NCBI GenBank assembly: GCA_030390025.1
Contig: JASTWF010000230.1
Location: 124,001 to 188,000, forward strand
Direction of reading: 5' to 3'
Length of the DNA stretch: 64,000 bases
From: Squalus acanthias
Taxonomy: Eukaryota
Shown here: piece by piece, positions 44,696 to 63,848 of the stretch
Position numbering within the stretch: position 1 is the stretch's first letter
Layout: every line of letters starts with the position of its first letter
Made by a program: the position numbers and the translations under genes
Notes under the pieces: model-generated
What the model was told of the DNA's origin: nothing
The model's input: only the letters and a program-made list of their open reading frames with translations
Databases searched by the model: none

Positions 44696-44767
44696 AGGTT
44701 CCACCGAGATTTAAACTCAGATCACTGGATTCAAAGTCCAGAGTGCTCACCATTACACAATGGAACA
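44696..44767 (-). pseudogene. tRNA-Gln(TTG), probable pseudogene
   Basis: Close to the vertebrate tRNA-Gln sequence but T loop reads GTTTAAA and G1 is lost. Confidence 0.8.
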
Positions 44768-45290
44768 CACACCCGCTGCTTGAGCCAACTCTGTTTTCTC
44801 AATCTCTGCTACCATTCACAGACAGTGGAATCGTTTCTGCCAATGCTGGAAATACTCAACAGGTCAGGCAGCATCTGTGGAGAGATCAATAGAGTTGTGA
44901 CAAAGGGGCATTCACCTGAAACGTTAATTCTGTTTCTCTCTCCACAGATGCTGCCTGACCTGCTGAGATTTTCCAGTATTTTCTGGTTTTTTTTTTAGAT
45001 TTCTAGCATTCGCAGTATTTTGCATTTGTTATCTTTTCTGATTCCAGTTCAGTGGCACTTGTTGTCTGACGCAAAGAGATGAATCGTTTCAACTGAAAAG
45101 TGAACTATCTCAGTCAAGAGCAAAATCTGTCATTGTACCAGGAGCTGGACTGAGAGCTCCAGTAACATGGATTGAAGCAGCAGTTCAGGCGACTGGGGGT
45201 TTGTGGAATGTTGTAGTCTAGAATCGATCTGTCCGCAGATTTTAACAAGTGTCTGCATTTACATGTAAAACACAGAGATTGACACAAATC

Positions 45291-45361
45291 AGGTCCTACT
45301 GAGATTTAAATCAGGTCGCTGGATTCAAAGTCCACAGTGTTCCCCATTACACCATGGAACC
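45291..45361 (-). pseudogene. tRNA-Gln(TTG) pseudogene
   Basis: GGTTCCATGGTGTAATGG head; mutated D and T arms. Confidence 0.78.
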
Positions 45362-45419
45362 GACACTAACATCTTATTGAGAGCAAATATTTGAAAGAAA
45401 CATGCCTCTTTTGTCATAA

Positions 45420-45790
45420 ACAACAACTTGCATCTATTTAGCGCCTTTACCGGCGTAGACCGTCCCAAGGCGCTTCACAGGAGGTTTCTGAAATAAATTG
45501 TGACACCCAGCCGCGAAAGGAATTATTAGCACAGATGATCGAAAGTTGGTCACAGAGGTAGGTTTTAAGGAGCGTGTTAAAAGAGAAAAGAGAGATAGAG
45601 AGGCGGAGAGGTTCAGGGAAGGAATTCCAGAACTGAGGTCCTCGGCAGCTGAAGGCACGGCCACCCATGGTGGAGCGATTAAAGTCAGGGCTGTTGAGAG
45701 CCCTGAATTGGAGGAGCGCAGATATCGCGGGGAGTTGTAGGGCTGGAGGAGATTACAGAGATAGGAAGGGGCGAGGCCATGGAGGGATTT
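45420..45790 (-). mobile_element. L2 LINE 3' end
   Basis: GGRAFSCRGPQFWNSFP...FNTLLKTYL plus L2 tail. Confidence 0.8.
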
Positions 45791-46120
45791 GCACTAGTGC
45801 GAGAGCACAGTACATGCAATGTCTGCATTTCAAGAAGCAATGCTTTGAAACTCTACAAGTCTGACTTCTGAATGCAGATTACAAAGAGAAGTTCAGCAAA
45901 CACCATGATGTTGTGCAGACAGACGCTGCATTGGACAACAAACAACTTTCACTTCCGCTCATTTGGAACAGGGAAAGACAGGCTGAGCTTGTGATTGGAC
46001 ATCTAGACAAGGAGATCAATCCCCATTGATGAAGGCAGCAAACGGCCCAGAGCAGCGATCGGTTTCCAGGAGACTTTTCATTCTTTTTTCCAAATTTTCC
46101 AACAGCCGGGACAAGAATTC

Positions 46121-46190
46121 AGGTTCCACCGAGATTTAAAGTCAGATCACTGGATTCAAAGTCCAGAGTGCTCACCATTACACCATTCCA
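46121..46190 (-). pseudogene. tRNA-Gln(TTG) pseudogene
   Basis: Paralog of 44696-44767 with the 5' end lost. Confidence 0.78.
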
Positions 46191-46498
46191 CGTGCGCTCC
46201 TCTGAGCCAACTCTGTTTTCTCCAGCTCTCCTCCCATTCACAGTCACTGGAATCTTTCTTAACTCCTGTTCAGTGAGACTTGTGTTCTGACACAAAGAGA
46301 CTTATCGTTTCAACAATCTCCGCCAAGAACAGCATTCTGTCATTGTGGCAGGAGCTGGACTCAGAGCTCCAGTAACATGGATTGCAGCAGCAGCTCAGGA
46401 TTGCAGACTTGTGGAATGTTATTTACTAGAATCGATCTGTCTGCAGATGTTAAAAAGTGTCGCCATTTCCATGGGAATCATAGAGATTGACACAAAAC

Positions 46499-46568
46499 AA
46501 GTTCCACCGAAATTTGAACTCAGAGCGCTGGATTCAGGGTCCAGAGCGCTCACCATTACACCACAAAC
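46499..46568 (-). pseudogene. tRNA-Gln(CTG) pseudogene
   Basis: Positional paralog of 45291-45361; acceptor stem broken. Confidence 0.75.
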
Positions 46569-47330
46569 AGGAAAGAACGTGTCAAAGGCGAGATTGAATT
46601 GTTGATTCTCGCTCTCTCTCCACTGACTCTCTTTCACTAACATTTCCCCAATCGAATATATTGGAACATATTTCATTCCAAAGTGAGTAACCTCCTGAAA
46701 AGCTCCGTGATTTCCCTCGCCGAATCACATCACTCTCGTTGGGATCAATTTCGACGAGAAACAGCTGTGACGTCCTGAGTGGGTGAAAGGCGCTGCAGAA
46801 AGACAAGTCTTTCTTGCAAAAGTTTCAACTGCAATTTCAAAACGCGGGCACCTCCGCGATTTGAATCCGGGAACTTCCGGCAAAATTTAACCAACAACCC
46901 CGAAGCGAGAATCACAACCCGAGACCAACTTATTAAAAAGATAGCCATACAGACCGATAGAAACTGCAATTTGAATCCTATCGCTGACCCTGTGTTGTCC
47001 TATTAATCTGTGTTGTTCTGCTCCCACATTATCAATGACAAGGTTCCGAGCCTCAATTTTTAAATAAAATATGTCCACATCTTCAGTAACGACACGCGAG
47101 GATGAGATTCCCTAAATCAGCGCCAACTTTCCCCAAAAAACCTTATAGTACGCAACCAAAACTGTGTCCTATATGGGAAATATCATTGAGAATTACTTCG
47201 CTCACTGTAACTATGCCATTTGAGTGGCATAATTCGCCTTTCAATGCGTATTTTATTCATACTTAACCAAACATGTAATTGATTCCAGTTTTCATATTTA
47301 CTGAACTTGAATGGAGAAAAGCCATCAGGT

Positions 47331-47403
47331 TGCATCTACCCACTTTCGAACCGTTGAGTTGTCGTGTGTTAGCGGACTGCGATAACCACAACACACCGGA
47401 GAC
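47331..47403 (-). pseudogene. tRNA-Val(AAC) pseudogene
   Basis: GTCTCCG..GTGGTTATC..CTAACAC..CGGTTCGAAA, strongly diverged. Confidence 0.6.
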
Positions 47404-47894
47404 CATCCAGCACTCGGGTGCATTGCATTGCAGCGACTCAATAGGAAGAGGAGGAGGCCATTCAGCCCCTCGAGCCTGTTCCGCCATTCATTTAGATCCC
47501 GGGCTGATCTGTGGGTTAACTCCATCTACCTGCTTAGGTTCAGTAATACCCTTAATACCCTTAACCAACAAAAATCTATCGACAGTAGCGGCAATCTTCA
47601 GCCTCAAACCAGCTCCGCTCCCGGATCCAGACAGAAAAGGCTTCTTACTGACGGCCACCGTGCAGATTAATGAATTACATTTCTGAACTTTACCGGGGAG
47701 GGATTCGGAGATTCCCAAAGCGATCAAAAGATGAAATGGGCGTCACTGTTGATCAGTGTTCTCTCACTCAAAGTTATCTATATAGTGAAGTGAAATAAAG
47801 AGCAATAAAAGAATAAGGGAGCAGCCACTGTAGCCCTTTTGACAGGAGAATAAACTCGCCTCGAGATGTTCATCCACAACAAGTTAAAACAAAA

Positions 47895-47967
47895 TGAACC
47901 CACCCAGGATCGAACCGGAGACCTTACGCGTGCAAAGCGAACGTGATAACCACTACACCACGGAAAC
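47895..47967 (-). pseudogene. tRNA-Val body with TGC anticodon, broken acceptor stem
   Basis: GTTTCCGTGGTGTAGTGGTTATCACGTTCGCTTTGCACGCGTAAGGTCTCCGGTTCGATCC. Confidence 0.8.
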
Positions 47968-48174
47968 TGCTGGTACTGTAACTGCATCAGAGCGGAACTG
48001 ACCAGTGAACTTCCTCTGTGCTGATCGGGAATGTGTTGGTTCAACTTAAACAACATCACTTGTGTCCCACACTAAAAGTTCACAATCCTTCTCCTCCACT
48101 ACATTTTACAGCTCACACACGGGAGAGGTGGGGAAACGCTTCCCGCGGGTAGGGGCTGCTGTCAAGGATGGGAC

Positions 48175-48635
48175 ATAGAATCATAGAATCACACAGCACT
48201 AAAGGAGGCCTTTCGGCCCATCCTGCCTTTGCCGGCTCTTTGAAAGAGCTTTCCAATTAGTCCCACTCTAGTGCTCTTCCCTTAGCACTGCAATGTTTTA
48301 ATTTTTACATTCCCTTTTGAAAGATACTATTGAATCAGCTTCCACCGATCATTCAAGGAGTGGATTCCAGCTGATAACAACTCGCTGCGTAAAAAAAAAT
48401 CGCCTCGCCTCCTCCCTGGCTTATTGTGTTACCGATTATTTTAAATCTGTGTCCTCTGGTAACCGATCCTCCTGCCAGTAAAATCAGTTTCTCCCTGTCT
48501 GCTCCATCAACGCCCCACCCGGCCCATAATGGTGAACACCTCTATTAAATCTCCCGTTAACCTTCTCTGCCATTAGGAGAACAATCCCAGCTTCTCCAGC
48601 CTCTCCACATCAGTGAAGTCCCTCATCCCTGGACA
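48175..48635 (-). mobile_element. CR1 3' fragment
   Basis: Reverse-complement CR1 3' end with (CATAGAAT)n tail. Confidence 0.75.
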
Positions 48636-49259
48636 TGATGTAAGGTGGAGGATTGCGATGAAATTTGGAAAATATTGCCAGTTGGGACCGGAAAAATCGA
48701 AAAGAACAAAACAAGAAAATACAGTGAACAGTTTTGTGAATCTTTAGAAATGCTTTTGGAAACGGAATGAGGGGAGAATGAAGAGCTGAACTGCCCGACT
48801 GTCCAGAGGCGGTCAAGGCACCTTTCCCTGGTTTAAGACAATGAGACATTTACTCTGATGTTACCGGTGAATTGAACTGATCGGAGCCAAGTGAAAGATT
48901 CTCGTTACTGCAGATCAGGAAGATAAACCTAATACCGGCTTCGGGACAATCAGAAAGCTTCCTCACAGACATGGCACCGAAAGGCTCGAAGGGAGACCGC
49001 ACCGGTTGCGGGAGAGCTGGTTGATATTCATATGAAGGAGAAGGGAATAGTAGGTTATGCTGATAGAGTTAGATGTGGAAAGACGGGAGGAGGCTCTTGT
49101 GCAGCATAAACGCCGGCATGGACTGGTTGGGCCGAATGGCCTGTTTATGTGCTGTATATCCTATGTAATCCTATGTACTCCTATGCAATGCAAGAAAAGT
49201 TGCCAAATCAATTTGTAATTTTCCCATGGCTTTGTGTAGGAGATGACGTTATTCTGGCA

Positions 49260-50785
49260 ATGGAGAAGATTGCAGGGGCTCTGACATAGATTTTCAGAAT
49301 CTCTCTGGCCACAGGGGAGGTGCCAGAGGACTGGAGGACAGCTAACGTAGTACCATTATTCAAGAATGGTAGTAGGGATAAACCAGGGAATTACAGGCCA
49401 GTGAGCCCAACGTCAGTGGTAGGGAAATAATTGGAAAAAAATCTGAGGGACCAAATTAGTCTCCACTTGGAGAGGCAAGGATTAATCAAGAATAGTCAGC
49501 ATGGCTTTGTCAGGGGGAGATCATGTCTAACCAATTTGATTGAATTTTTCGAGGGGGTGACTAGGTGTGTGGATGAGAGTAGTGCAGTTGATGTAGTCTA
49601 CATGGACTTCAGTAAGGCTTTTGACTAAGTCCCGCATGGGAGACTGATCAAGAAGGTAAGAGCCCATGGGATCCAGGGCAATTTGGCACATTGGATCCAA
49701 AACTGGCTTAGTGGCAGGAGGCAGAAGGTGATGGTCAAAGGTTGTTTTTGTGACTGGAAGCCTGTGTCCAGTGGTGTACCGCAGGGATCGGTGCTGGGTC
49801 CGTTGCTGTTTGTAGTGTGCATTAATGATTTAGTTATGAATGTAGGAGGTATGATCAGTAAGTTCGCAGAAGACACGAAAATTAGTAGAGTGGTTAATAG
49901 CGAGGAGAGAAGCCTCAGTCTCAGGACGATATAGACGGGTTGGTCAGATGGGCAGAACAGTGGCAAATGGAATTTAACCCTGAAAAGTGTGAGTGCATTT
50001 TGGGAGGACTAACAAGGCAAGGGAATACACAATGAATGGTAGGACCCTAGGAAGGACAGGTGATCAGAGGGACCTTGGTGTGCATGTACATAGATCCCTG
50101 AAAGCAGCAGAACAGGTAGATAAGGTGGTTAAGAAGGCATATGTGATACTTGCCTTCATTAGCCAAGGCATAGAATATAAGAGCAGGAAGGTTATGATGG
50201 AGCTGTACAAAATGCTAGTTAGGCCACAGCTGGAATACTGTGTGCAGTTCTGGTCGCCACACTATAGGAAGGATGTGATTGCATTGGAGAGGGTGCAGAG
50301 AAGATTCACGAGGTTGTTACCTGGGCTGTAGCGTTTCAGCTATGAAGGGAGACTGGACAGGCTGGGGATGTTTTCCCTGGAGCAGCGAAGCCTGAGGGGG
50401 TCCTGATTGAGGTGTACAAAATTATGAGGGGCAAATATAGGGTAGATAGAAATGAACTTTTCCCCTTAGTAGAGGGGTCAATATCCAGGGGGCATAGTTT
50501 CAAGGTAAGGGGCAGGACGTTTAGAGGGGATTTGAGGAAAACATTTTTCACCCAGAGGGTGGTTGGAATCTGGAACTCACTGTCTGAAAGGATGGTAGAG
50601 GCAGGATCCCTCACAACATTCCAGAAGCATTTAGATGAGCACTTGAAACGCCATAGCATACACGGCTACGGACCAAGTGCTGGAAAATGGGATTAGAATA
50701 GACAGGGCTTGATGGCCGGCACAGACACGATGGGCCGAAGGGCCTCTTTCTGTGCTGTATAACTCTATGACTCTATGACTCTATG
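49260..50785 (+). mobile_element. CR1 LINE, 5'-truncated
   Basis: [30 protein letters not shown]; tail (ACTCTATG)n. Confidence 0.92.
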
Positions 50786-50936
50786 GTTGGTCCTGTTTAA
50801 AACTAGATTAAAAAGGTAATAATTGAAGCAAATATAACGTAAGAATCAAACACAACTTTTTACCTCACAGGTGTTCCATCTGACTGATATGTATAACCTG
50901 ACCCACTTGTTGTTATTGTGCCAAGTATGGTCATTA

Positions 50937-52475
50937 CGAACATACGAATTAGGACCAGGAGTCGGCCACTCGGCCCTTCGAGCCTGCTCCGCCATTCAAT
51001 AAGATCATGGCTGATCCGATTACTCCACATTCCCGCCTACCCCCGATAACTTTTCACCCTCTTGCTTACGAAGAATCTATCTAACTCTGCCTTAAAAATA
51101 TTCAAAGACTCTGCTTCCACCGCCCTCTGAGGAAGAGAGTTCCAAAGACTCACGACCCTCTGTGAGAAAAAAATTCTCCTCATCTCTGTCTTAAATGGGC
51201 GACCCCTTATTTTTAAACAGTGACCCCTAGTTCCAGATTCTCCCACAAGAGGAAACATCCTCTCCACACCCACCCTCTCCAGACCCCTTAGGTTTTTATA
51301 TGTTTCAATCAATTCACCTCTTTCTCTTCTAAACTCAAGCGGATACAAGCCTAGCCTGTCCAACCTTTCCTCATAAGACAACCCGCCCATTCCAGGTATT
51401 AGTCTAGGAAACCTTCTCTGAACTGCTTCCAATGCATTTACATCCTTCCTTAAATAAGCAGACCAATACTGTACACAGTACTCCAAATGTGGTCTCACCA
51501 GTGCCCTGTATAACTGAAGCATAACCTCCCTACTTTTGTATTCAATTCCCCTCGCAATAAACGATAACATTTTATTAGATTTCCTAATTACTTGCTGTAC
51601 CTGCATAGTAACCTTTTACGATTCATGCACTAGGACACCCAGATCCCTCTGCATTTCAGAGCTCTGCAATCTCTCACAATTTAGATAATATGCTTCTTTT
51701 TTATTCTTCCTGCCAAAATGGACAACTTCACATTTTCCCATATTATACTCCATTTGCCAGTTCATTGCCCACTCACTTAACCTATCTATAACCCTTTGTA
51801 GCCTCCTTATGTCCTCTTCACAATTTACTTTCCTACCAATCTTTTTGTCATCAGCAAATTTAGCAACCCAACCTTCGGTCCCTTCATCCAAGTCATTTAT
51901 ATAAATTGTAAAAAGTTGAGACCCCAGCACTGATTCCTGTGGCACACCACTTGTAACATTTTGCCAATCAGAAAATGACCCATTTATGCCTACTCTCTGT
52001 ATCCTCTTAGCTAGCCAATCTTCTATCCATGCCAATATGTTACCCCCTACACCATGAACTTTTATTTTCCGCAATAACCTTTGATGTGGCACCTTATCAA
52101 ATGGCTTCTGGAAATCGAAGAACAGTACATCCACCGATTCCCATTTCTGCACAGCATATGTTACTCCCTCAAAGAACTCCAATAAATTGGTAAAACATGA
52201 TTTCCCTTGCACAAAACCATGTTGAGTCTGCCTGATTACTTTGAACTTTTCTAAGTGCCCTGCTATAACGGCTTTAATAATAGCTTCTAACATCTTCCCT
52301 ATGACAGATGTTAAGCTAACTGGACTGTAGTTTCCTGCTTTCTGTCTCCCTCCCTTTTTGAATAAAGGAGTTACGTTCGCTATTTTCCAATCTAATGGAA
52401 CCTTCCCCGAATCTAGGGAATTTTGGAAAATTATAACTAACGCATCAACTATCTCACAAGCCTCTTCTTTTAAGA
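50937..52475 (-). mobile_element. CR1 LINE, 5'-truncated
   Basis: 225-aa and 189-aa RT/C-terminal ORFs separated by a stop; CR1 3' UTR. Confidence 0.92.
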
Positions 52476-52654
52476 TTTCTCAAGTGGGACCCAATCTTAA
52501 CATCACTACATAAGAAACAGGAGCAGGTGTAGGCCGTTCGGCAGCGAAAAACACGATGGTTAAGGACGATTAGCCTTTCAGAAACCCCTGCTGGCTTTCT
52601 TTAATTAATCTGCACCTATCCAAGTGACTGTAAATTTTGACCCTGATTGCTGTT

Positions 52655-52915
52655 TTTAAAAGCTTCCATATACCGAGGTTAACCTGACTGGCCTGTAGTT
52701 GCTGAGTTTATCTTTTAACCCTTTTTTGAACAATACTTTAACATTTCCAATTCTCCAGACCTCTGGCACCATCCCCGTATCTATGGAGGATTGGAATATT
52801 ATGGCCAGTACCTCCGCAATTTCCACATTTATTTCCCTCAGTTTCCTAGGATGCATCCCATCCGCTCCTGGTGATTTATCTACTTTAAGCACAGCCAGCC
52901 TAACTAATTCCTCTT
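52655..52915 (-). mobile_element. CR1 ORF2 fragment
   Basis: DKSPGADGMHPR...NYRPV. Confidence 0.8.
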
Positions 52916-53164
52916 CTTCTGTCTCTCTGGCTCTGTTTAATCTGTGTGTTGCCATCTGCAGGTTGATTTTGATTTTGAACGAATGTGTTTGTGTCTTAAT
53001 TAAAAACAGGAAATGCTGGAAATACTCAGCAGGTCAGACAGCATCTATGGGAGAGATACACAATTAACGTTTCAGGTGGCTGACCTGTTGTCAGAACTGA
53101 AAAAAGTTAGAGATGTAACAGGTTTTAAGCAAGTACAGAGGCAAGGGAACAGGGGAGAGGAGGA

Positions 53165-54132
53165 TGCAGTGGTGTTCCCCAGCGGTCTGTATTCGGACCA
53201 CTGCTCTTTTTCATATATATTAATGACCTGGACTTGGGTATACTGGGCTGAATTTCCAAGTTTGCAGATGACAGGAGACTCAGAAATGTAGTAAACAACG
53301 ATCCTGAAAGTAACAGACTTCATGAGGACATCTACAGAGTGGTGGAATGGGCAGAGACATAGCAGATGGAATTTAACACAGAGATGTGTGAAGTGATCCA
53401 TTTTGGTCGGAAGATTGAGGAGATGCAACACAAACTAAATGGTACAATTTTAAATCGGGTGCAGGAACAAAGAGACCTGGGGGTGTATTTATTTATCTTT
53501 GAAGGTGGCGGGACAGCTTGAAAAGGCTGTTAAAAAGCGTACGGGATCCTTGGCTTTATTAATAGTGTCATAGATTTAAAAAGCAAGGAAGTAATGCTCA
53601 GCCTTTATACATCATTGTTTCGGCCTCAGGTGGAGGTTTCTGGGCACAACATTTTAGGAAGGATGTGAAGGCAGAAACGATTCACAAGCTTGTTTCGGGG
53701 GATGAGGGACTTCAGTTACGTGGATAGACTGGAGAAGCTGTCGTTGTTCTCCTTTGAGCAGAGAAGATCGCGATGAGATCTGATAGAGGTGTGCAAAATC
53801 ACGAGGGGTCTAGACAGGGTAGATAGAGAGAAACTTTTCCCATTGGTGGAAGGGTCGAAATCCAAAGGAACAAGATTTAAGGTGATTGGCAGAAGAACCA
53901 AAGGCGACATGAGGGAAAAAAACGTTACGTAGCGAGTGATAAGGATCTGGAATGCACTGCCTGAAAGCATAGGTAGAGACCGATTCAATCGTGGCTCTCA
54001 GAAGGGAATTGGATAAGTACCCGAAGGGAAAATATGTTGCGTGCTACGGAGAAAGTGCGGGGAGTGGGACTAGCTGGAGTGTTTTGCATTGAGCAGGCAT
54101 GGGCTCGATGGGCCCGATGGCCTCCTTCTGTG
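53165..54132 (+). mobile_element. Degenerate CR1 3' fragment
   Basis: SGVP-like and KFADD remnants, CR1 tail. Confidence 0.8.
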
Positions 54133-54354
54133 GTTTTGATGTTTACTGCTGATTCTATTTTCTGTGCACTGTAGAAATAACCGGTCCTGTTCAATTTGAC
54201 AAAATGAGATATGGGTAACATGCAAAGCACAAATTAAATTATTGTATATCGACTCTCCCTCAGTTAGCATTTCTTTCATTGGGCAAAAGAAGGTTATCGG
54301 TTAATTAATGACGCTTTTCCGTGGAAACAGCATACATGTTTAACAAACAGCATT

Positions 54355-54427
54355 CGCCCAACGTGGGGCTCGAACCCACGACCTTGCGATTAAGAGTCTC
54401 ATATTCTACCGACTGAGCTAACCGGGC
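54355..54427 (-). tRNA. tRNA-Lys(CTT), full length but with stem mismatches (possibly pseudogene)
   Basis: 73 nt, GCCCGGTTAGCTCAGTCGGTAGAATATGAGACTCTTAATCGCAAGGTCGTGGGTTCGAGCCCCACGTTGGGCG; A and B boxes intact; D-stem and anticodon-stem mismatches. Confidence 0.8.
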
Positions 54428-54881
54428 CTGATAAGCGCGCGCGTCCTTGTCTCTGATTGCAGCCAGGCGCCTGCTGGCTCCGCCCCAGTGTTTTAACTTG
54501 TTCTGCAAACCACGAACCAGGTTCTCCTGAATTCCAAGGTGTGTAAGGAAATCAAGCATCAAAAGTCCTTTCATTAACCACAGGGTTTCAGGCATTTTCT
54601 GATCGCAAAGCGCTTTTATTCCTTGTCAATATCTCTTGTCTATTTCCCGGTGTTTCCCGATTTTGTCTGTCTCGCTGGCTCTGTTTATTCTGTGTGTGGC
54701 CACCTGCAGGTTGATTTTGAACGAATACCTGTGCTTGTGTCTTGTCACATTAAATAAATGAGGCATTCTGGCGATTCTTTCTCTTACACTGGGGAAACAG
54801 TGAGATAGTCTTTGGAGCAAGGTTCTGATTATTGTGAAACAGCAAAGGAAATATGAATTCCGGGATTATCTAATAGAACAA

Positions 54882-54931
54882 TGACCCGCCGTGATCTGGA
54901 GTCAGACGCGCTACCGTTGCGCCACGAGGTC
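54882..54931 (-). pseudogene. tRNA-Trp(CCA) with most of the variable loop and T arm deleted
   Basis: Canonical first 40 nt GACCTCGTGGCGCAACGGTAGCGCGTCTGACTCCAGATCA joined directly to CGGCGGGTCA. Confidence 0.88.
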
Positions 54932-55649
54932 CAAAATGCGAGCGGCGATGTTTGTATATATGCACGTTCCTCAAGCACTGTTTGATTTCTCCTGACTTGG
55001 AGTAATTAAAGGGCTTTAAAATCCCCGCCCACTCCCACCGGGTGTCAGACAGCATCCGAAGCAGCGCTCACCTGTCAGTCACCGTCTCACGCCCGCTTTC
55101 ACCACCTGCGTTAAGTTCTGGTCACCACACTTTAGGAAGGATGTGCAGGCCCCTGAGAGGGTGCAGTGGAGATTTACCAGATTGTTTCCGGGGATGGGGG
55201 ATCTTAGCTACAAGGACAGGTTGGAGAAGCTGCATTTGTTTTCATTACAACAACAACATGTAATTATATAGCGCCTTTAACGTAGTAAAACGTCCGAAGG
55301 CGCTGCATAGGAGTATTTTAAGAAAAAGGAGGTTGACGGGTGATTTAATAGAGGTGGACAAGATTATGATGAGTTTGGATAGGCTAGACGGGGAAAGGCT
55401 GTTGCCACTAGTTGATGGTACAAGGACTAGGGGACACAGATTTAAGGTTTTGGGGAAGAGATACAGGGGGAATGTGAGGAAAACTTTTTTACGCAGCGAG
55501 TGGTGAGGACCTGGAACTCGCTGCCGACGGAAGTGGTGGAAACGGAGACGCTCAATGTTTTCAACTGGAGACTCGATGGGCACTTGAGGGAAATAAACTT
55601 GCTGGGCTATGGTGACAGAGCGGGGGGAATGGGACTGGCTGGATTGCTC

Positions 55650-56907
55650 AAGATAAAAAATCGCTGGATTGGGGGTAATATTCTGGCATGGGTGGAGGAT
55701 TGGTTATCTAACAGGAAGCAGAGAGTTGGGATAAATGGTTCATTCTCGGACTGGCAACCAGTAGCCAGTGGTGTTCCGCAGGGGTCGGTTCTGGGTCCCC
55801 AACTCTTTACAATCTATATTAACGATTTGGAAGAGGGGACTGAGTGTAACATATCAAAGTTTGCAGATGATACAAAGATGGGAGGGAAAGTAGAATGTGA
55901 GGAGGACATAAAAAACCTACAAGGGGATATAGACAGGCTGGGTGAGTGGGTGGAGATTTGGCAGATACAATACAATATTGGAAAATGTGAGGTTATGCAC
56001 TTTGGCAGGAAAAATCAGAGAGCAAGTTATTAACTTAATGGCGAGAAACTGGAAAGTACTGCAGTACAAAGGGATCTGGGGGTCCTAGTGCAAGAAAATC
56101 AAAAAGTTAGTATGCAGGTGCAGCAGGTGATCAAGAAGGCCAACGGAATGTTGGCTTTTATTGCTAGGGGGATAGATTATAAAAACAGGGAGGTATTGCT
56201 GCAGTTATATAACGTATTGGTGAGACCGCACCTGGAATACTGCATACAGTTTTGGAGTCCATACTTAAGAAAATACATACTTGCTCTCGAGGCAGTACAA
56301 AGAAGGTTCACTCGGTTAATTCCGGGGATGAGGGGGTGGACATATGAGGAGAGGTTGAGTAGATTGGGACTCTACTCATTGGAGTTCAGAAGAATGAGAG
56401 GAGATCTTATTGAAACATATAAGATTGTGAAGGGGCTTGATCGGGTGGATGCGGTAAGGATGTTCCCAAGGATGGGTGAAACTAGAACTAGGGGGCATAA
56501 TCTTAGAATAAGGGGCTGCTCTTTCAAAACTGAGATGAGGAGAAACTTCTTCACTCAGAGGGTAGTAGGTCTGTGGAATTTGCTGCCCCAGGAAGCTGTG
56601 GAAGCTACATCATTAAAAAAATTTAAAACAGAAATGGACAGATTCATACAAGTAAAGGGAATTAGGGGATACGGAGAGCGGGCAGGAAATTGGACATGAG
56701 GCTGAGTTCAGATCGGTCAAGGCCCTGTGGGTGGCGGAGCGGGCCCAGGGGCTGAGTGGCCGGATCCTGCTCCTACTTCTTGTGTTCTTTAGATTTGAGG
56801 TTAGGATCAGATCAGCCACGATCTTATTGAATGGCGGGGCAGGCTCGAGGGGCCGATTGGCCTACTCCTGCTACTATTTCTTATGTTCTTATGTTCTTAT
56901 GTTCTTA
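55650..56907 (+). mobile_element. Young 5'-truncated CR1, same subfamily as 34534-39293, inserted in an older CR1 fragment (55100-55650)
   Basis: Protein nearly identical to the C-terminus of the 872-aa ORF; same 3' UTR layout and (TTCTTATG)n tail. Confidence 0.92.
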
Positions 56908-57407
56908 GAACGCCAGCACGGACTCGATGGGCCGAATGACCTCCTTCTGTGCCGTTATGAATCTATGACTATGAACTATAGAGCAGTGATAATCGGGGAC
57001 TTCAGCTATCCTAATATATCTGATAATCAGTCTAAATATAGAAAGCTCAGAGGAGAATTGAAAAGGAAAAGAGGGGCGAAAAGAGAGGGTATGAGAATAG
57101 AATGGCTGCTAACACAAAAGGTAATCCAAAAGTCTTCTATAGGTGTGTATTACCAAGTTTAACGACACTAAGTTAGTGGCACAGTAAGTAGTGTAACTGG
57201 GAGCAGAAAATTGCAAAGGCACATAGAACCCGTGGTCAAACTAGAGGCATCTGATTCAGAAGATTCGGGAGAAGGAAATTCGGGAGTTTAATGAGTTTGA
57301 TAGGAACATTTTTGTCTTGCGCACTTTCGGTCAGAGAAATGTTAGTGATAGGAAATTAATCCAGAATCTGGGATGCAGCATGTCACCTTCTCGCTGAACA
57401 GATCTTT

Positions 57408-57829
57408 CACGGTGGCATAGTGGTTAGCACTGGTGCCTCACAGCGCCAGAGACCCGGGTTCGAATCTGACCTCGGGTGACTGTCTGTGTGGAGTTTGCAC
57501 ATTCTCCCCGTGTCTGCGTGGGTTTCCTCCGGGTGCTCCGGTTTCCTCCCACAGTCCAAAAATGTGTGGGTTAGGTTGATTTGGCTATGATAAATTGACC
57601 CTTAGTGTTAGGGGGGATTAAATATGTGGGGTTATGGGGATAGGATGGGATATGTTAGGGGGAATTAAATACGTGGGGTTACGGGGGTAGGGTGGGATAT
57701 GTGTACTGTGGGGATTAAAGCAGGGACAGGGTACTGGATTTGGATGATCAGCCATGATCGTATTGAATGGCGGAGCAGGCTCGACGGGCCGAATGGCCTA
57801 CTCCTGCTCCTAGATTCTATGTTTCTATG
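57408..57829 (+). mobile_element. HE1-type SINE
   Basis: Near-identical to 18104-18540. Confidence 0.9.
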
Positions 57830-57848
57830 GATGCTATGTGCATCAGAG

Positions 57849-57921
57849 GTTTACATAGTGTAGCGGTTATTACGTTTACCTTACACACAAAAAGTCCACG
57901 GTTCAATGCTGGGCGGAAACA
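57849..57921 (+). pseudogene. tRNA-Val(TAC) pseudogene
   Basis: GTTTACATAGTGTAGCGGTTAT...CTTACAC...GGGCGGAAACA. Confidence 0.75.
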
Positions 57922-57922
57922 T

Positions 57923-58504
57923 TGGGCCCAATTTTCCGATCGGAGAGTTCCTGCGTGTGGAGAACGCCAATCGGGAAATCAAATCTACAGATTTACCTCA
58001 GAGCTCCGGAGGTCCGGACATTTCCGCTCCTGGGCCTCTGCCAACTCGAAATGTGCAGGGCCCTTGTATCCCAGAGGTTCATGCGGTTTGCAAGCGACCC
58101 TGGGATCTTGGGGAACTCATCAAAGAAGAGAATCTCCCTTCATGCACGTGACAGATAGACCTGACAAATATAGGTATGGAGATCAGCCCAAAAACACTGT
58201 AAAAAGTTAAATATTTTTTTTAAATCACGTTAAATAATTTTTTTAAACTACATTTTTTAAATTATTTGAAATTACAATAAATTAAATATTTTTACAAAAA
58301 TTTAATTTTTTGAACAAAATAATTAAAGTTTTTTACGCGGCTAAAAATAAACTTAATTTTTTTTAAAGTATTGTTAAGTGATCAGATCGTAAATGCCGGT
58401 TTTCAGCGCATGCGCTTCGCATGCCTGACCCCGACATTTTTTGATGTCCCTGCGGGTGTGTACACAGCGCATACTCACCCGAAGGGATTGGAATATTCGG
58501 CCCA
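57923..58504. mobile_element. MITE, same family as 39381-40103
   Basis: TGGGCCCAATTTTCCGAT ... ATTGGAATATTCGGCCCA; the paralogous site after 60344 is empty. Confidence 0.82.
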
Positions 58505-58629
58505 ATTTTCGAGAGCATATTTTTTGTGAAAGAAATGAATACACAAAGTGTAAATTGAGATGGGGATAAAACTTCATCAATGAATAAAGTTGCGCACATT
58601 GTTAAAGTTAAGTTATTGAAGTTTCTTTA

Positions 58630-59815
58630 ACCAAGGGTCAGTGGCAGCTTGGATAAGGAATTGGCTGAACGATAGAAAACAGCGAGTTGTGGTAAATGGC
58701 TGTTTTTCACACTGGATGATGGTAGACAGTGTTGTTCCCCAAGGGTCAGTGCTGGGGCCATTGCTTTTGTGATATTTATAAATGACCTGGATATTGGAAT
58801 ACAGAGTTGAATTTCTAAATTTGCCGACGACACCAAACTTGGGGGTGTAACAAACAGTGAGGATGATACCAATCAACTGCAGCAGGACAGAGAAAGGCTA
58901 GCAGAATGGGCAGGCAAGTGGCAGATGGATTTTAATACAGAGAAGTGTGAGGTGATGCATTTTGGCAGAAGGAACTGTGAGACGCAATATACACATAATG
59001 GCACAGTTTTAAAGAGTGTGCAGGGAAAGAGGAACCGGGGATTTAATGTGCATAGGTCCTTGAAGGTGGCAGGACATATGGAGGGAGTGGTTAACAAAAC
59101 ATATCGGATCTTGGGCTTAATAAATAGAGGTATGGAGTACAAAAGTAGAGAAGTGATGCTGAAGCTTTGTAAAGTTATGGTTAGGCCGCAACTGGAGTAC
59201 TGCGTCCAGATCTGGTCACCACATTTTAGGAAGGATGTGAAGGCCCTTGAGAGGGTGCAGTGGAGATTTACCAGAATGGTCGCGGTGATGGGGGATCTTA
59301 GCTACAAGGACAGGCTGGAGAAGCTGCAATTGTTTTCATTACAACCACAACAACTTGCATTTATATAGCGCCTTTGACATAATAAAACGTCCCAAGGTGC
59401 GGCACAGGAGTATTTTAAGACAAAGGAGGTTGAGGGGTGATCTGATACAGGTATACAACATTATAATGAGTTTGGATAGGCTAAACGGGGAAAGGATGTT
59501 CCCACTAGTTGATGTTAAAAGGACTAGGGTCACATATTTCTGTTATTGGGCAAGAGATACAGGAGGGTCGTTAGGAAAAAAAAAATTACGCAGCGAGTGG
59601 TGAGGACCTGGAATTCGCTGCTGACGGAAGTGGTGGAAACGGAGACACTCAATGTTTTCAAGTGTAGACTGGATAGGCACTTGAGGGAAATAAACATGCA
59701 GGGCTGCGGGGATAGAGCGGGGGAATGGGACTGACTGGATTGCTCTACAGAGAGCCGGCACGGACTCGATGGGCCGAATGGCCTCCTTCTATGCCGTTTT
59801 GACTCTATGACTATG
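58630..59815 (+). mobile_element. CR1 LINE, 5'-truncated, with a short L2-type tail insert at ~59340-59415
   Basis: [26 protein letters not shown]; tail (GACTCTAT)n. Confidence 0.88.
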
Positions 59816-60270
59816 AACTATAGAGCAGTGATAATGGGAGACTTCAACTGTCCTAATATATCTGAGAATCAGGCTAAATATAGAAAGTTAATTTGAGATG
59901 TGAAAAGGAAAATAAGAGGTAAAAGAGAGGGTATGAGAATAGAATGACTGCTGACATAAAAGGTAATCCAAAAGTCTTCTATAGGCGTATATTCCCAAGT
60001 TTAACGACACTAATTAGTTACACAGTAAGTCGTGTGGATGAGAGCAGAAATTGCAAAGGGACATAGATGGAGTGGACAAAATCAAAGACTTCTGATTCAG
60101 AAGATTCGGGAGAAGGAATTTCGGGACTTTAATGAGTTTGAAAGGAACATTTTTGACTTATGCAGTTTCTATCAGAGAAATGTTAGTGATGGGAAATTAA
60201 TCCTGAATCTGGGATTCAGCATTTCACCTTCTCGCTGAACAGATCTTTCCGGAGGCAGTGTGAACCAATG

Positions 60271-60344
60271 GTTTCCGTAGTGTAGCGGTTATCACGTTCG
60301 CCTTGCACTCGAAAAAGCATCCGGCTTGATCCCGGGCGGAAACA
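60271..60344 (+). pseudogene. tRNA-Val body with TGC anticodon, mutated B box
   Basis: GTTTCCGTAGTGTAGCGGTTATCACGTTCGCCTTGCACTCGAA...CCCGGGCGGAAACA. Confidence 0.8.
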
Positions 60345-60990
60345 TTATGTTCGAGAGTATTATTTCTGTGAAATAAATTAATACACAGTGTGTAAAATCA
60401 GATCGGTGATAAAACTTCATCAATGAATAAAGTTTCGCAAATTATTAAATTTAAGTTATTGAAGTTTCGACTCTCCCTCAGTGTGAGCATCTCTTTCATT
60501 CTGCAAAAACAACTCTATCGGTTAATGAATGGTGATTAAAACAATTAAACCACTAAACTACCAGAAAACACTTTTCGAGTTTATCACAATTGCTGACATT
60601 TCTTATCAATGTTCTTGTGTTTTTTCAGCTCTTAGTCCTTTTCAGCTCCTGACTGCGGATATTCCTCTGATTAAACCTAAACAAAATGCAACATCTCGCA
60701 GCCCCGGCCTCGGTTAATATCATCAGATCTAAGCCGCATTTCAGACGCGGAAACAAACCCGTTAATTACTCGCTCTTCCCCAGCTCCAGAGCTCAGAGGG
60801 TTATTGTCTATCCTGGGCTGCAAGATACCACGGACCCGGGCCAAACCTCCCCATACACCGAGCACAGGCTCAGAAACACCCCGGGGGAGATGATGTCCCG
60901 TTCACTGAGCCTTCGAGCAGCATTGAACAAGCGTCCGGACTGAAACTTTCTAAATGTGGAAGTGATAACTTGCAATTTAGTTTAGGCGCT

Positions 60991-61074
60991 GTCAGAATGG
61001 CCGAGTGGTCGAAGGCGCTGCGTTCACGTCGCAGTTTCATTTGATAGGCGTGGGTTCGAATCACCCTTCTGACA
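60991..61074 (+). tRNA. tRNA-Leu(CAG)-type body with CAC anticodon (probably pseudogene)
   Basis: GTCAGAATGGCCGAGTGGTCGAAGGCGCTGCGTTCACGTCGCAG...GGTTCGAATCACCCTTCTGACA; long variable arm; two T-stem mismatches. Confidence 0.8.
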
Positions 61075-61253: not shown

Positions 61254-62644
61254 TTTTGTTGGAACTTGCTCCTCATGCATGTCCAGGGGCGAGTTTGCTC
61301 TGCTGTGAAAGGACATAAGAACGAAAGAATTAGGAGCAGGAGTCGGCCTTATGGCCCCCCGAGCCTGCACCGCCATTCAATCAGATAATGGCTGATCTTC
61401 GACCTCAACTCCACTTTCCTGCCTATCCCCATATCCCTTGATTCCACTGCAGTCCAAAAATCTATCGATCTCAGCCTCGAATATACTCAACGAATGAGCA
61501 TCAACAGCACTTTGGGGCAGAGATTACCAAGGAAAGAGGCTGCAATCTTTTCAATCGAACAATGGTGGATGTCACAAGCACCGAACATTTTTAAGCAAAC
61601 TCCTAAAATATAGTGTGTAAAATGAGAAGGGATAACATTTCATGACATGCAAAGCATGGACATCACTGTGTGAAATGGGACTTGGATAACATTGATGTAA
61701 ATATATTTCTGCCTGACATGGTGGTGGAAGCAGATTCAATATTAACTTTCAAAAGGGAAATACATTGAAAAAGAAACTCTTGCAGGGCTTCGGGGAAAGA
61801 GCTGGGGAGTGGAAATAATTGGATCGCTCTTTCAAAGAGCCGGCACAGGCACGATGGGGCGAATGGCCTCCTTCTGTGCTGTATGATTCTGTGATTCTGT
61901 AATAAGTTATTGCAGTTTGGCTGTCACCCAGTAAACGTGTTAACAATTCATACAGTGTTCAACGCAATGTTGTTGGTTGATTAATGATGATTGAAACAAT
62001 TATAAGATGTCTCACATACTTGAATTATTCCTTAATACTTGTGGTTACAAAAAAATTATCAATCGCAGATTAAAATGAACAATTGATGTAGCAACTTTGA
62101 AAGCGCTTTCCAATTAGTTCCACTCCGCTGCTCTTCCCCCACAGCCCTACTGACCCTCCTGTCAGTGGAAACAGTTTCCCCCATAATTTTGAACAGTTCT
62201 ATTAAATCTCCCCGGAACTGTGATTAATGGAGTTTAACGTGGGCAAGTGTCAGATCATCCACTTTGGGCCGAAGAAAGATCGGTCAGTGTGTGGTCTGAA
62301 AACATTATGTCAGAGCATTTTTGTTCTGTGAAATAGCCGGTCCTTTTAAATTTAACAAAAAGTTGCCCCAGATCCTGCTCTTAAAAACAATGAACATTTT
62401 AAAACATTCTCCTACATTACAATGTGTAAAATGAGATATGGGTTAACAGTTCAGCACATGCAAAGAGCAAAATAAATGACTGAAGTCTCGACTGTCCCTC
62501 AGTCACCATATTAAAATATTTATCATTCTGCAAAAGAAGGTTATCAGTTAATTAATGGTGATTCAAACATTTCTTAATTTTTTCACATTAGTTGCATGTT
62601 ATTTATTCGCTTTAATTAATTAAAAACGGTGATGTCAAAGTTAC

Positions 62645-62670
62645 TTCCCTAACCGGGAATCGAATACGGG
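62645..62670 (-). pseudogene. tRNA-Glu 3' remnant (similar remnant at 33231-33260, +)
   Basis: TTCCCTAACCGGGAATCGAA. Confidence 0.5.
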
Positions 62671-62794: not shown

Positions 62795-62889
62795 AAAAAA
62801 ACACGCCAGGCAGCGCCCGCGGTGAGATAGGGGTCGAAATTAGAATTAAGTTGGCGCTGCGAAGTAACCGCTGAGCTAAAGATGACGCC
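62795..62889 (-). ncRNA. VTRNA: Vault RNA gene or pseudogene
   Basis: Minus strand CTTTAGCTCAGCGGTTACTTCG and CCGCGGGCGCT match the conserved 5' and 3' vault RNA blocks; pairing ends GCGTCA/TGGCGT; T7 terminator; TATA-like TTTATATT about 25-30 bp upstream. Confidence 0.82.
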
Positions 62890-63432
62890 GATCAAAGGGC
62901 GAGAAACCGCTCAATATAAAGGATGAGCTCACAAACATCAGGCGCAGTGCAGTCTGGTCAACGTCAAACCCCTCCTTTCTTATTCAACAGAGGAAGAAGT
63001 GACATGAACAGGAATCAGATGCTACAAACTTTTTTAAAGGCCCAAATACTTACTTACAAATCTTTTCAGTGTAAAATTCTTTCACTTTATTTCAAAGCTG
63101 ACTGCGTTTAATCTGAATGTCAGCACAATGGGATTTCATGTTCACTGCTGATTCTATTTTCTGAGCACGGTGGAAATAACCGGTGCTGTTCAATTTGACA
63201 AATATTGCCCCAGATTCCTGGTGTCATCAGCAATGAACACTTTAAACCAGACTCCTAAAGTACCGTGTGTAAAAGGAGATCTGGGTAACAGTTAACGTCA
63301 AAGCACAAATAAAATGATTGAAGTATCGACTCTCCCTCAGTTAGCATTTCTTTCATTGTGCCAAAGAAAATTACCGGTGAATTCATGATGATTTGCCGTG
63401 AAAGCAACAAACAAAAAGTTTAACAATAACCT

Positions 63433-63487
63433 TCGCCTAACTTGGGGTCCGAACCCTCGAACCTGCTGCCGACTGAACTCGCATGGC
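63433..63487 (-). pseudogene. tRNA-Lys remnant
   Basis: CGCCTAACTTGGGGTCCGAACCC...CCGACTGA in the same flanking context as 54355. Confidence 0.6.
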
Positions 63488-63783: not shown

Positions 63784-63848
63784 GTTCTCGTAGTGTAGTG
63801 TATATCAAGTTCCCCTCACAAGCCCCGATTCAATCCCGGGCGGGAAAC
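63784..63848 (+). pseudogene. tRNA-Val(CAC) pseudogene
   Basis: GTTCTCGTAGTGTAGTG...CCTCACA...CCCGGGCGGGAAAC with deletion; same upstream module as 57849 and 60271. Confidence 0.65.

Follow-up and report, generated by a model that had tools for sequence, protein, structure and literature searches.

How does a vault RNA gene come to stand among tRNA genes, and what has become of its box B, which departs from the consensus? Both questions are raised by a locus of the spiny dogfish, Squalus acanthias, within a stretch of 64,000 nucleotides (contig JASTWF010000230.1, positions 124,001 to 188,000) that we refer to as the window and in whose coordinates its features are given. In mammals, vault genes lie in the order ZMAT2, vault, protocadherin (PMC7058938). 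Recent reviews report between one and four vault RNA genes, at conserved locations, for each vertebrate studied (PMC7058938, PMC10491885), the human genome having four genes along with two pseudogenes, and mouse and rat a single gene each (PMC7058938, PMC10491885, PMC7073466).

A vault RNA gene copy in a tRNA cluster

An initial annotation had called a vault RNA-like gene on the minus strand of the window, and this call was borne out by the Rfam Vault model (RF00006), which matched positions 62799-62888 over its whole length (model positions 1-99) at 49.1 bits, as compared to a gathering score of 34 bits (E 6.3e-8 in the 64-kb scan and 2e-9 in a 2-kb scan). This gene body of about 90 nt, for which 62888 is numbered +1, is the only vault copy within the window. 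All of the sequence blocks quoted for the gene are in place, the 5′ block running down from 62889. Box A (62868..62878, on the minus strand like all other features of the gene) is intact, matching 11/11 positions of the type 2 consensus as excerpted from PMC7279448, and box B (62830..62840) lies in forward orientation and matches the corresponding consensus at 9/11 positions. Box B had been described as atypical, and indeed its first fixed G is lost by a derived G to T change at 62839, common to a 12-copy clade without this G; a second change, A to C at 62833, falls at a free position. Box B is followed by an 8-nt spacer (62823..62830), which is an insertion relative to the Rfam model, by the 3′ strand of the panhandle (62803..62822), which in intact paralogues pairs with the box A region and the 5′ end, and by a T7 run (62795..62801) as the putative Pol III terminator. 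Model score, box A and terminator support assignment of the window copy to the vault RNA family.

The placement of the gene in a tRNA cluster was likewise confirmed, with seven Rfam tRNA matches in the window from 44696 to 61074. Its closest tRNA neighbours are decayed remnants. For example, a remnant of tRNA-Lys(CTT) lies at 63434..63465 (minus strand), a site occupied in related cassettes by an intact tRNA-Lys, about 600 nt upstream of their vault gene, and a tRNA-Val(AAC)-like remnant, 72% identical in alignment, lies at 63784..63846 (plus strand). Downstream of the vault gene, the box B-like 3′ end of a further tRNA remnant at 62645..62664 (minus strand), presumably of Glu identity, is common to paralogous cassettes. 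On its own, the window copy is ordinary.

Copy number of the family

A 25-mer search of the whole genome (3.7 Gb) returned 99 exact matches and 242 matches with at most three mismatches; the reversed 25-mer, used as a control, returned none in the same genome. Judged by such matches, the vault family of this genome comprises about 240 sequences, of which the window copy is one. A degenerate 20-mer found 174 matches, 62 of them on seven chromosome-scale scaffolds (13-266 Mb) and 112 elsewhere. In a 150-kb portion of scaffold C21, selected around copies already known, the 25-mer matches coincide one for one with the eight Rfam vault genes, which are present there among 39 tRNA matches. We fetched 156 of the roughly 240 copies, of which 152 have the 3′ element; a duplicate (L049) and four copies without this element were excluded, and L047 was also left out of the tree. 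Nine of the 152 copies are on scaffold C3, near or in the protocadherin cluster, and the remaining 143 are termed non-C3 copies below.

Could this number be an assembly artefact of uncollapsed haplotypes, or could the copies be a vault-derived retroposon? The 112 matches off the seven chromosome-scale scaffolds and the identity of certain copies over 230 nt would fit an artefact, and uncollapsed haplotypes on unplaced contigs may inflate the count. They cannot explain it, because 62 matches are held by chromosome-scale scaffolds and 131 of the 152 copies are distinct over 230 nt. Retroposition would account for five copies that share less than 30 nt of upstream flank, and at least two copies look like isolated insertions. 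Against it, at least 100 nt of upstream flank is common to the window copy and 134 of the 143 non-C3 copies (at least 300 nt in 101 of them), and upstream flank is not copied by retroposition. A retroposon, SINE or processed-copy origin was rejected on this ground for most copies, and we consider it very improbable that an artefact or a retroposon accounts for the family.

We found no prior report of vault RNA amplification in the literature searched; an earlier notice, in Stadler et al. 2009 or in database annotations, is possible.

Isolated vault-derived copies that lack the upstream flank of the family were observed at L048:2035, L047:2072 and L073:1478-1566 (scaffolds C1 and C22), and a contig from sequencing run X4 has flanks resembling those of L048.

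Vault genes at the protocadherin cluster

The initial annotation had also noted that mammalian vault genes lie near the protocadherin cluster. Vault genes do exist near or in this cluster in the present genome, nine of them on C3, but the window copy is not at that site. On C3 the protocadherin cluster extends over 196.6-198.68 Mb, with IK at 198.99 Mb, and three vault genes (L066:5014-5108, L066:7812-7916 and L067:800-904) lie at 198.718-198.724 Mb. On one side of this syntenic trio is the last protocadherin variable exon that we located (198.680 Mb), and on the other, 16.5 kb away, an exon at 198.740 Mb that matches ZMAT2 (E 1e-13). The old ZMAT2-vault-protocadherin locus is retained in this genome. 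Two of the syntenic genes are 105 nt long and in opposite orientation, and the box B of the trio is imperfect, with 5-6 of seven fixed positions. The protocadherin cluster itself contains six further copies (L044:4978-8448 and L072:1467-2448, corresponding to C3:197.479-197.495 Mb), which lie between the variable exons at 197.460 and 197.498 Mb; four of these copies form two close pairs about 3.1 kb apart. Several vertebrates other than mammals have been described with a subcluster of a single gene at one end of their protocadherin cluster (PMC2764143), an arrangement that is not diagnostic of sharks. None of the nine C3 copies has an ARAGORN tRNA within 1.4 kb, and a single call was made in 155 kb of C3. 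The window copy, by comparison, is on scaffold C1461 among tRNAs, and the syntenic genes are three other, divergent paralogues; it is a VTRNA1 paralogue and not a positional orthologue.

Elsewhere on C3 (116.8-117.9 Mb, L166-L170), five near-identical broken retroelement-like stretches were seen, the pieces of which we take to be integrase-like and envelope-like.

Box B and its spacer

For the atypical box B, the initial annotation had advanced a micro-inversion in which a 16-nt segment was flipped in the window gene. Its arithmetic is correct: with the segment inverted and the 3′ stem fixed, 14/17 positions agree with the Rfam-type 3′ block, and the treatment of the spacer as an insertion by Rfam also speaks for the idea. 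However, a match of this quality is no more than chance. Among 2000 shuffled loops in which TCGA was kept, 54% give at least 14 matches by some inversion, because seven matches lie outside the inverted stretch and are fixed and four more are supplied by the palindrome TCGA. When the first 40 loci were aligned, the paralogues were seen to have a forward box B in register. Within the 152 copies, 52 read GTTCGAACC at this place, a form from which the window box B is two substitutions away; seven copies carry the single G to T change, as a one-step intermediate, and nine carry both window changes. The un-inverted layout was present in none of the 152 copies, and box B never abuts the 3′ stem. In 146 of them, 7-8 nt of spacer separate box B from the 3′ stem, and the divergent syntenic trio has a 7-nt spacer of unrelated sequence in the same place. 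Paralogue alignment, copy counts and shuffles thus refute a micro-inversion within this genome, and the probability that we leave to it is close to nil. Read against its paralogues, the atypical box B of the window copy has come about by two substitutions; the spacer is a long-standing feature of the family.

Upstream promoter elements

The TATA/CRE layout proposed for the gene held only in part. The TATA-like element TTTATATT at -32/-25 (62913..62920, read from 62920 to 62913) fits, and a TATA-like element was found in 118 of the 152 copies. For the TGACGT half-CRE at -78/-73 (62961..62966) the position differs: a published table places the CRE of vault (vt) genes at -53/-46 (PMC7279448), so that TGACGT in the window copy sits 25 nt farther upstream than the mammalian position. 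It recurs at -78/-73 in 110 of the 143 non-C3 copies and at this place in none of the nine C3 copies. Because of the 25-nt offset and this absence from C3, TGACGT at -78 is only a candidate homologue of the mammalian CRE. At the same position as the mammalian vault CRE the window copy has TGATGT (-52; 62935..62940), which is possibly a half-site decayed at its CpG.

tRNA neighbours, shared flanks and phylogeny

Amplified copies are commonly accompanied by tRNA genes. Among the 143 non-C3 copies, ARAGORN called a tRNA within 1.4 kb for 79, a number that rises to 118 if remnants are counted; for the other 25, no tRNA remnant was found within this distance. ARAGORN calls at relaxed scores were noise and were set aside. 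Lys(CTT) at -600 and Trp(CCA) at -1100 recur most often as neighbours. Rfam scans over 64 kb, 101 kb, 129 kb and 150 kb gave no Pol III family above threshold except tRNA and Vault. The shared DNA can be extensive: the window copy is colinear with an intact cassette over 1.6 kb at 82%, and tandem arrays with a period of 6.18-6.27 kb were found on two contigs. A spacer of about 230 nt, seen in the window at 63100-63340 and at 62290-62500, recurs upstream and downstream of the vault gene and beside cassette tRNA genes, which suggests that the cassette was built from one repeated module.

The copies inside the protocadherin cluster share 136-234 nt of upstream sequence with the window copy (71-75%), and no BLAST match was obtained between the upstream sequence of the syntenic trio and that of the window copy. 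In a midpoint-rooted tree of 130 distinct rows (alignment of 234 columns), the 121 non-C3 rows form one clade (support 97/98), the copies inside the protocadherin cluster branch next, and the syntenic trio stands apart. Since the root is a midpoint root and the columns number only 234, the direction of the move rests on location parsimony.

Constraint and folding across the family

All seven fixed box B positions are kept in 76 of the 152 copies and imperfect in the other 76, and 50 copies pass every promoter and terminator test. For 125 distinct non-C3 sequences, we compared the number of changes with that in flanking columns matched for base, leaving out the nine C3 copies and seven copies with foreign flanks. 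The ratio was 0.38 for the TATA element and likewise 0.38 for the four-column core of box B, as compared to 0.72 for the 3′ stem, 1.05 for the loop and 1.19 for positions -24..-1. When all six fixed box B columns were counted the ratio was 0.94, and the gene body without box A showed 0.87 of the expected changes, a small effect. The conservation of box A (0.15) was dropped as evidence of constraint because copies had been found through box A, which makes the argument circular. These ratios are sensitive to the baseline, with 3.2-3.9 changes per W/S column in the 5′ flank and 4.9-5.8 in the 3′ flank; the values for the 3′ stem and the CRE are weak because the two flanks differ about 1.5-fold, and flank rates may be inflated by misalignment or conversion. 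The slower change of TATA and box B core than of the flanks nevertheless points to partial constraint in the family.

Across 19 picked rows, 92% of cells in the Rfam helices are paired, and two helix pairs changed on both sides, in seven and three rows, each possibly a single event. The canonical fold with the box A/3′ helix was predicted for 140 of 151 copies, including 75 of the 76 with an intact box B. A subfamily of 74-75 nt has lost most of the central loop and kept the panhandle ends, scoring up to 65.7 bits (L074:1524-1598, L076:1450-1524, L078, L082, L108 and L111 on C21 and C460; L309:5205-5279); the 74-nt form accounts for six of the 152 copies.

What these copies do is open to two readings. 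Vault RNA may by now be a tRNA-like multigene family in this animal, in which dozens of promoter-intact tRNA-cluster copies would be transcribed and under selection, would outweigh the syntenic genes as the main source of vault RNA, and would include subfamilies such as the 74-nt form; we advance this tentatively, as a doubtful possibility. The amplified copies might instead all be functionless passengers, with only the protocadherin-linked genes in use. The imperfect box B in half of the copies, the mere 50 that pass all promoter and terminator tests and the slight deficit of changes in the gene body would be expected of passengers, and the best-folding gene of six tested is the first of the syntenic ones (z -3.8). 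The low ratios of TATA and box B core beside those of the loop and of -24..-1 argue otherwise, as does the canonical fold of nearly every copy with an intact box B; moreover, the syntenic genes are themselves imperfect in box B. A family made up wholly of passengers therefore seems unlikely to us, if still deserving of weight.

The protein partner was sought in the same assembly. Three Pfam searches of the genome for MVP gave nothing above cut-off, the weak hits being retroelement pieces or noise. With a bacterial MVP homologue as protein query, a 1-kb contig (C3115; L299:54-176) proved to carry the first coding exon of MVP, which adjoins a GC-rich tandem repeat and matches solved MVP chains at E 6e-22. 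Loss of MVP was rejected on the strength of this exon; no other part of the gene turned up in the assembly, and MVP is present but poorly assembled. The MVP shoulder family was also matched in 52 of 401 sampled genomes of one cyanobacterial order, mostly in full-length frames (L295-L298), and one cyanobacterial homologue that was tested scored 940 bits against a solved MVP chain.

Activity of the window copy

The window copy is set apart by T at +7, G at +34 and T at +50. It belongs to a 12-member clade (support 100/99) in which the first G of box B is absent and T is present at +7, this G to T change (62882) breaking one pair of the terminal stem; the A to G change at +34 (62855) is found in the window copy and in none of the other 11 members, and is predicted to make a competing helix that displaces the panhandle. 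Indeed, in the best predicted fold the terminal stem forms and the inner box A/3′ helix is absent, as in 11 of the 151 copies overall. The fold z is -0.5, as compared to about -2 for two intact paralogues, and paralogues score up to 66.4 bits with the Vault model.

Could the copy be normally active all the same, its TATA and CRE-like sites compensating for box B in a composite promoter? Vault promoters do join internal and external elements (PMC7058938), and box A, TATA, the -78 half-CRE and the terminator are all intact. The clade went on duplicating after the box B change, 7 of its 12 members keep the canonical fold, and none of 17 box A columns varies among them, which together with the intact elements would agree with a copy still in use. 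Even the first G of box B may be dispensable, given its 13 changes on the tree. Against normal activity, three changes have hit box B, the terminal stem and the fold, misfolding is predicted for the window copy itself, the tRNA genes beside it have decayed to remnants, and cassettes can be duplicated without activity. Normal activity is thus rather unlikely in our view. Because of its point changes, the loss of the first box B G and the predicted misfolding, the copy is probably weak or decaying: it would recruit TFIIIC less well and is likely to be weakly transcribed, and we think it fairly likely that it is weak or silent. Contigs of four sequencing runs, whose status as RNA was guessed, carry no weight either way, as none spans the gene and the pieces have other flanks.

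Discussion

We consider it quite probable that the window gene is a vault copy with two forward box B substitutions, likely weak or decaying, in a family that likely arose when a vault gene with its promoter entered a tRNA cassette and was then duplicated at the DNA level. In such a course, a vault gene would have been duplicated into the protocadherin cluster, where six copies are now found, and one of these internal copies would have moved, with 140-230 nt of upstream DNA, beside tRNA-Lys and tRNA-Trp genes. Tandem and segmental duplication of the tRNA cassette would then have carried it to at least four chromosome-scale scaffolds and into the 6.2-kb tandem arrays, and copies would turn over by birth and death, part of them held by selection on the promoter. 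By analogy, an intact copy would work like known vault genes, with TFIIIC on boxes A and B, TFIIIB at the TATA element, and Pol III stopping at the T run to give an 87-90 nt panhandle RNA that would bind TEP1/MVP vaults; this scheme and the binding to vault particles are established for mammalian vault genes.

The family resembles human VTRNA1-1, VTRNA1-2 and VTRNA1-3 (RF00006) in box A, predicted panhandle, TATA-like element and T terminator, and three genes of this genome share the ZMAT2/protocadherin site of the human VTRNA1 locus (PMC7058938). Unlike the handful of genes in human, mouse and rat, its matches number some 240; unlike mammalian vault genes, its copies have a spacer after box B and a half-CRE at -78 instead of -53, and most of those examined lie in tRNA cassettes, with six inside the protocadherin cluster. 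The human pseudogenes VTRNA2-2P and VTRNA3-1P are likewise vault-derived copies off the syntenic locus, not expressed or doubtful in expression. They are without the upstream CRE-like element (PMC7058938), whereas the copies described here have an upstream promoter and kilobases of shared flank. A further parallel comes from sharks: elasmobranch tRNA loci are described in a recent preprint as abundant and clustered, with 37 copies of tRNA-Sec in the spiny dogfish (10.1101/2025.06.08.657570). There too, a Pol III gene that is single-copy elsewhere reached tens of copies; in the present case a gene other than a tRNA has been amplified, to a number several times higher. The word "vault" does not occur in the main text of the preprint, and its supplements could bear on the point.

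What deserves further attention is the amplification in tRNA clusters, with the old locus kept alongside. It suggests that other Pol III genes are captured when tRNA clusters expand, as reported for tRNA-Sec in sharks (10.1101/2025.06.08.657570). The presence of vault genes within a protocadherin cluster is a hint at the reason for their continued linkage. Within a single genome, the family offers naturally varying promoters, spacers and loop lengths, with which one can test where in the vault RNA selection acts. If vault RNA has indeed become a tRNA-like multigene family, it would amount to a natural high-dose experiment on an RNA of unclear function.
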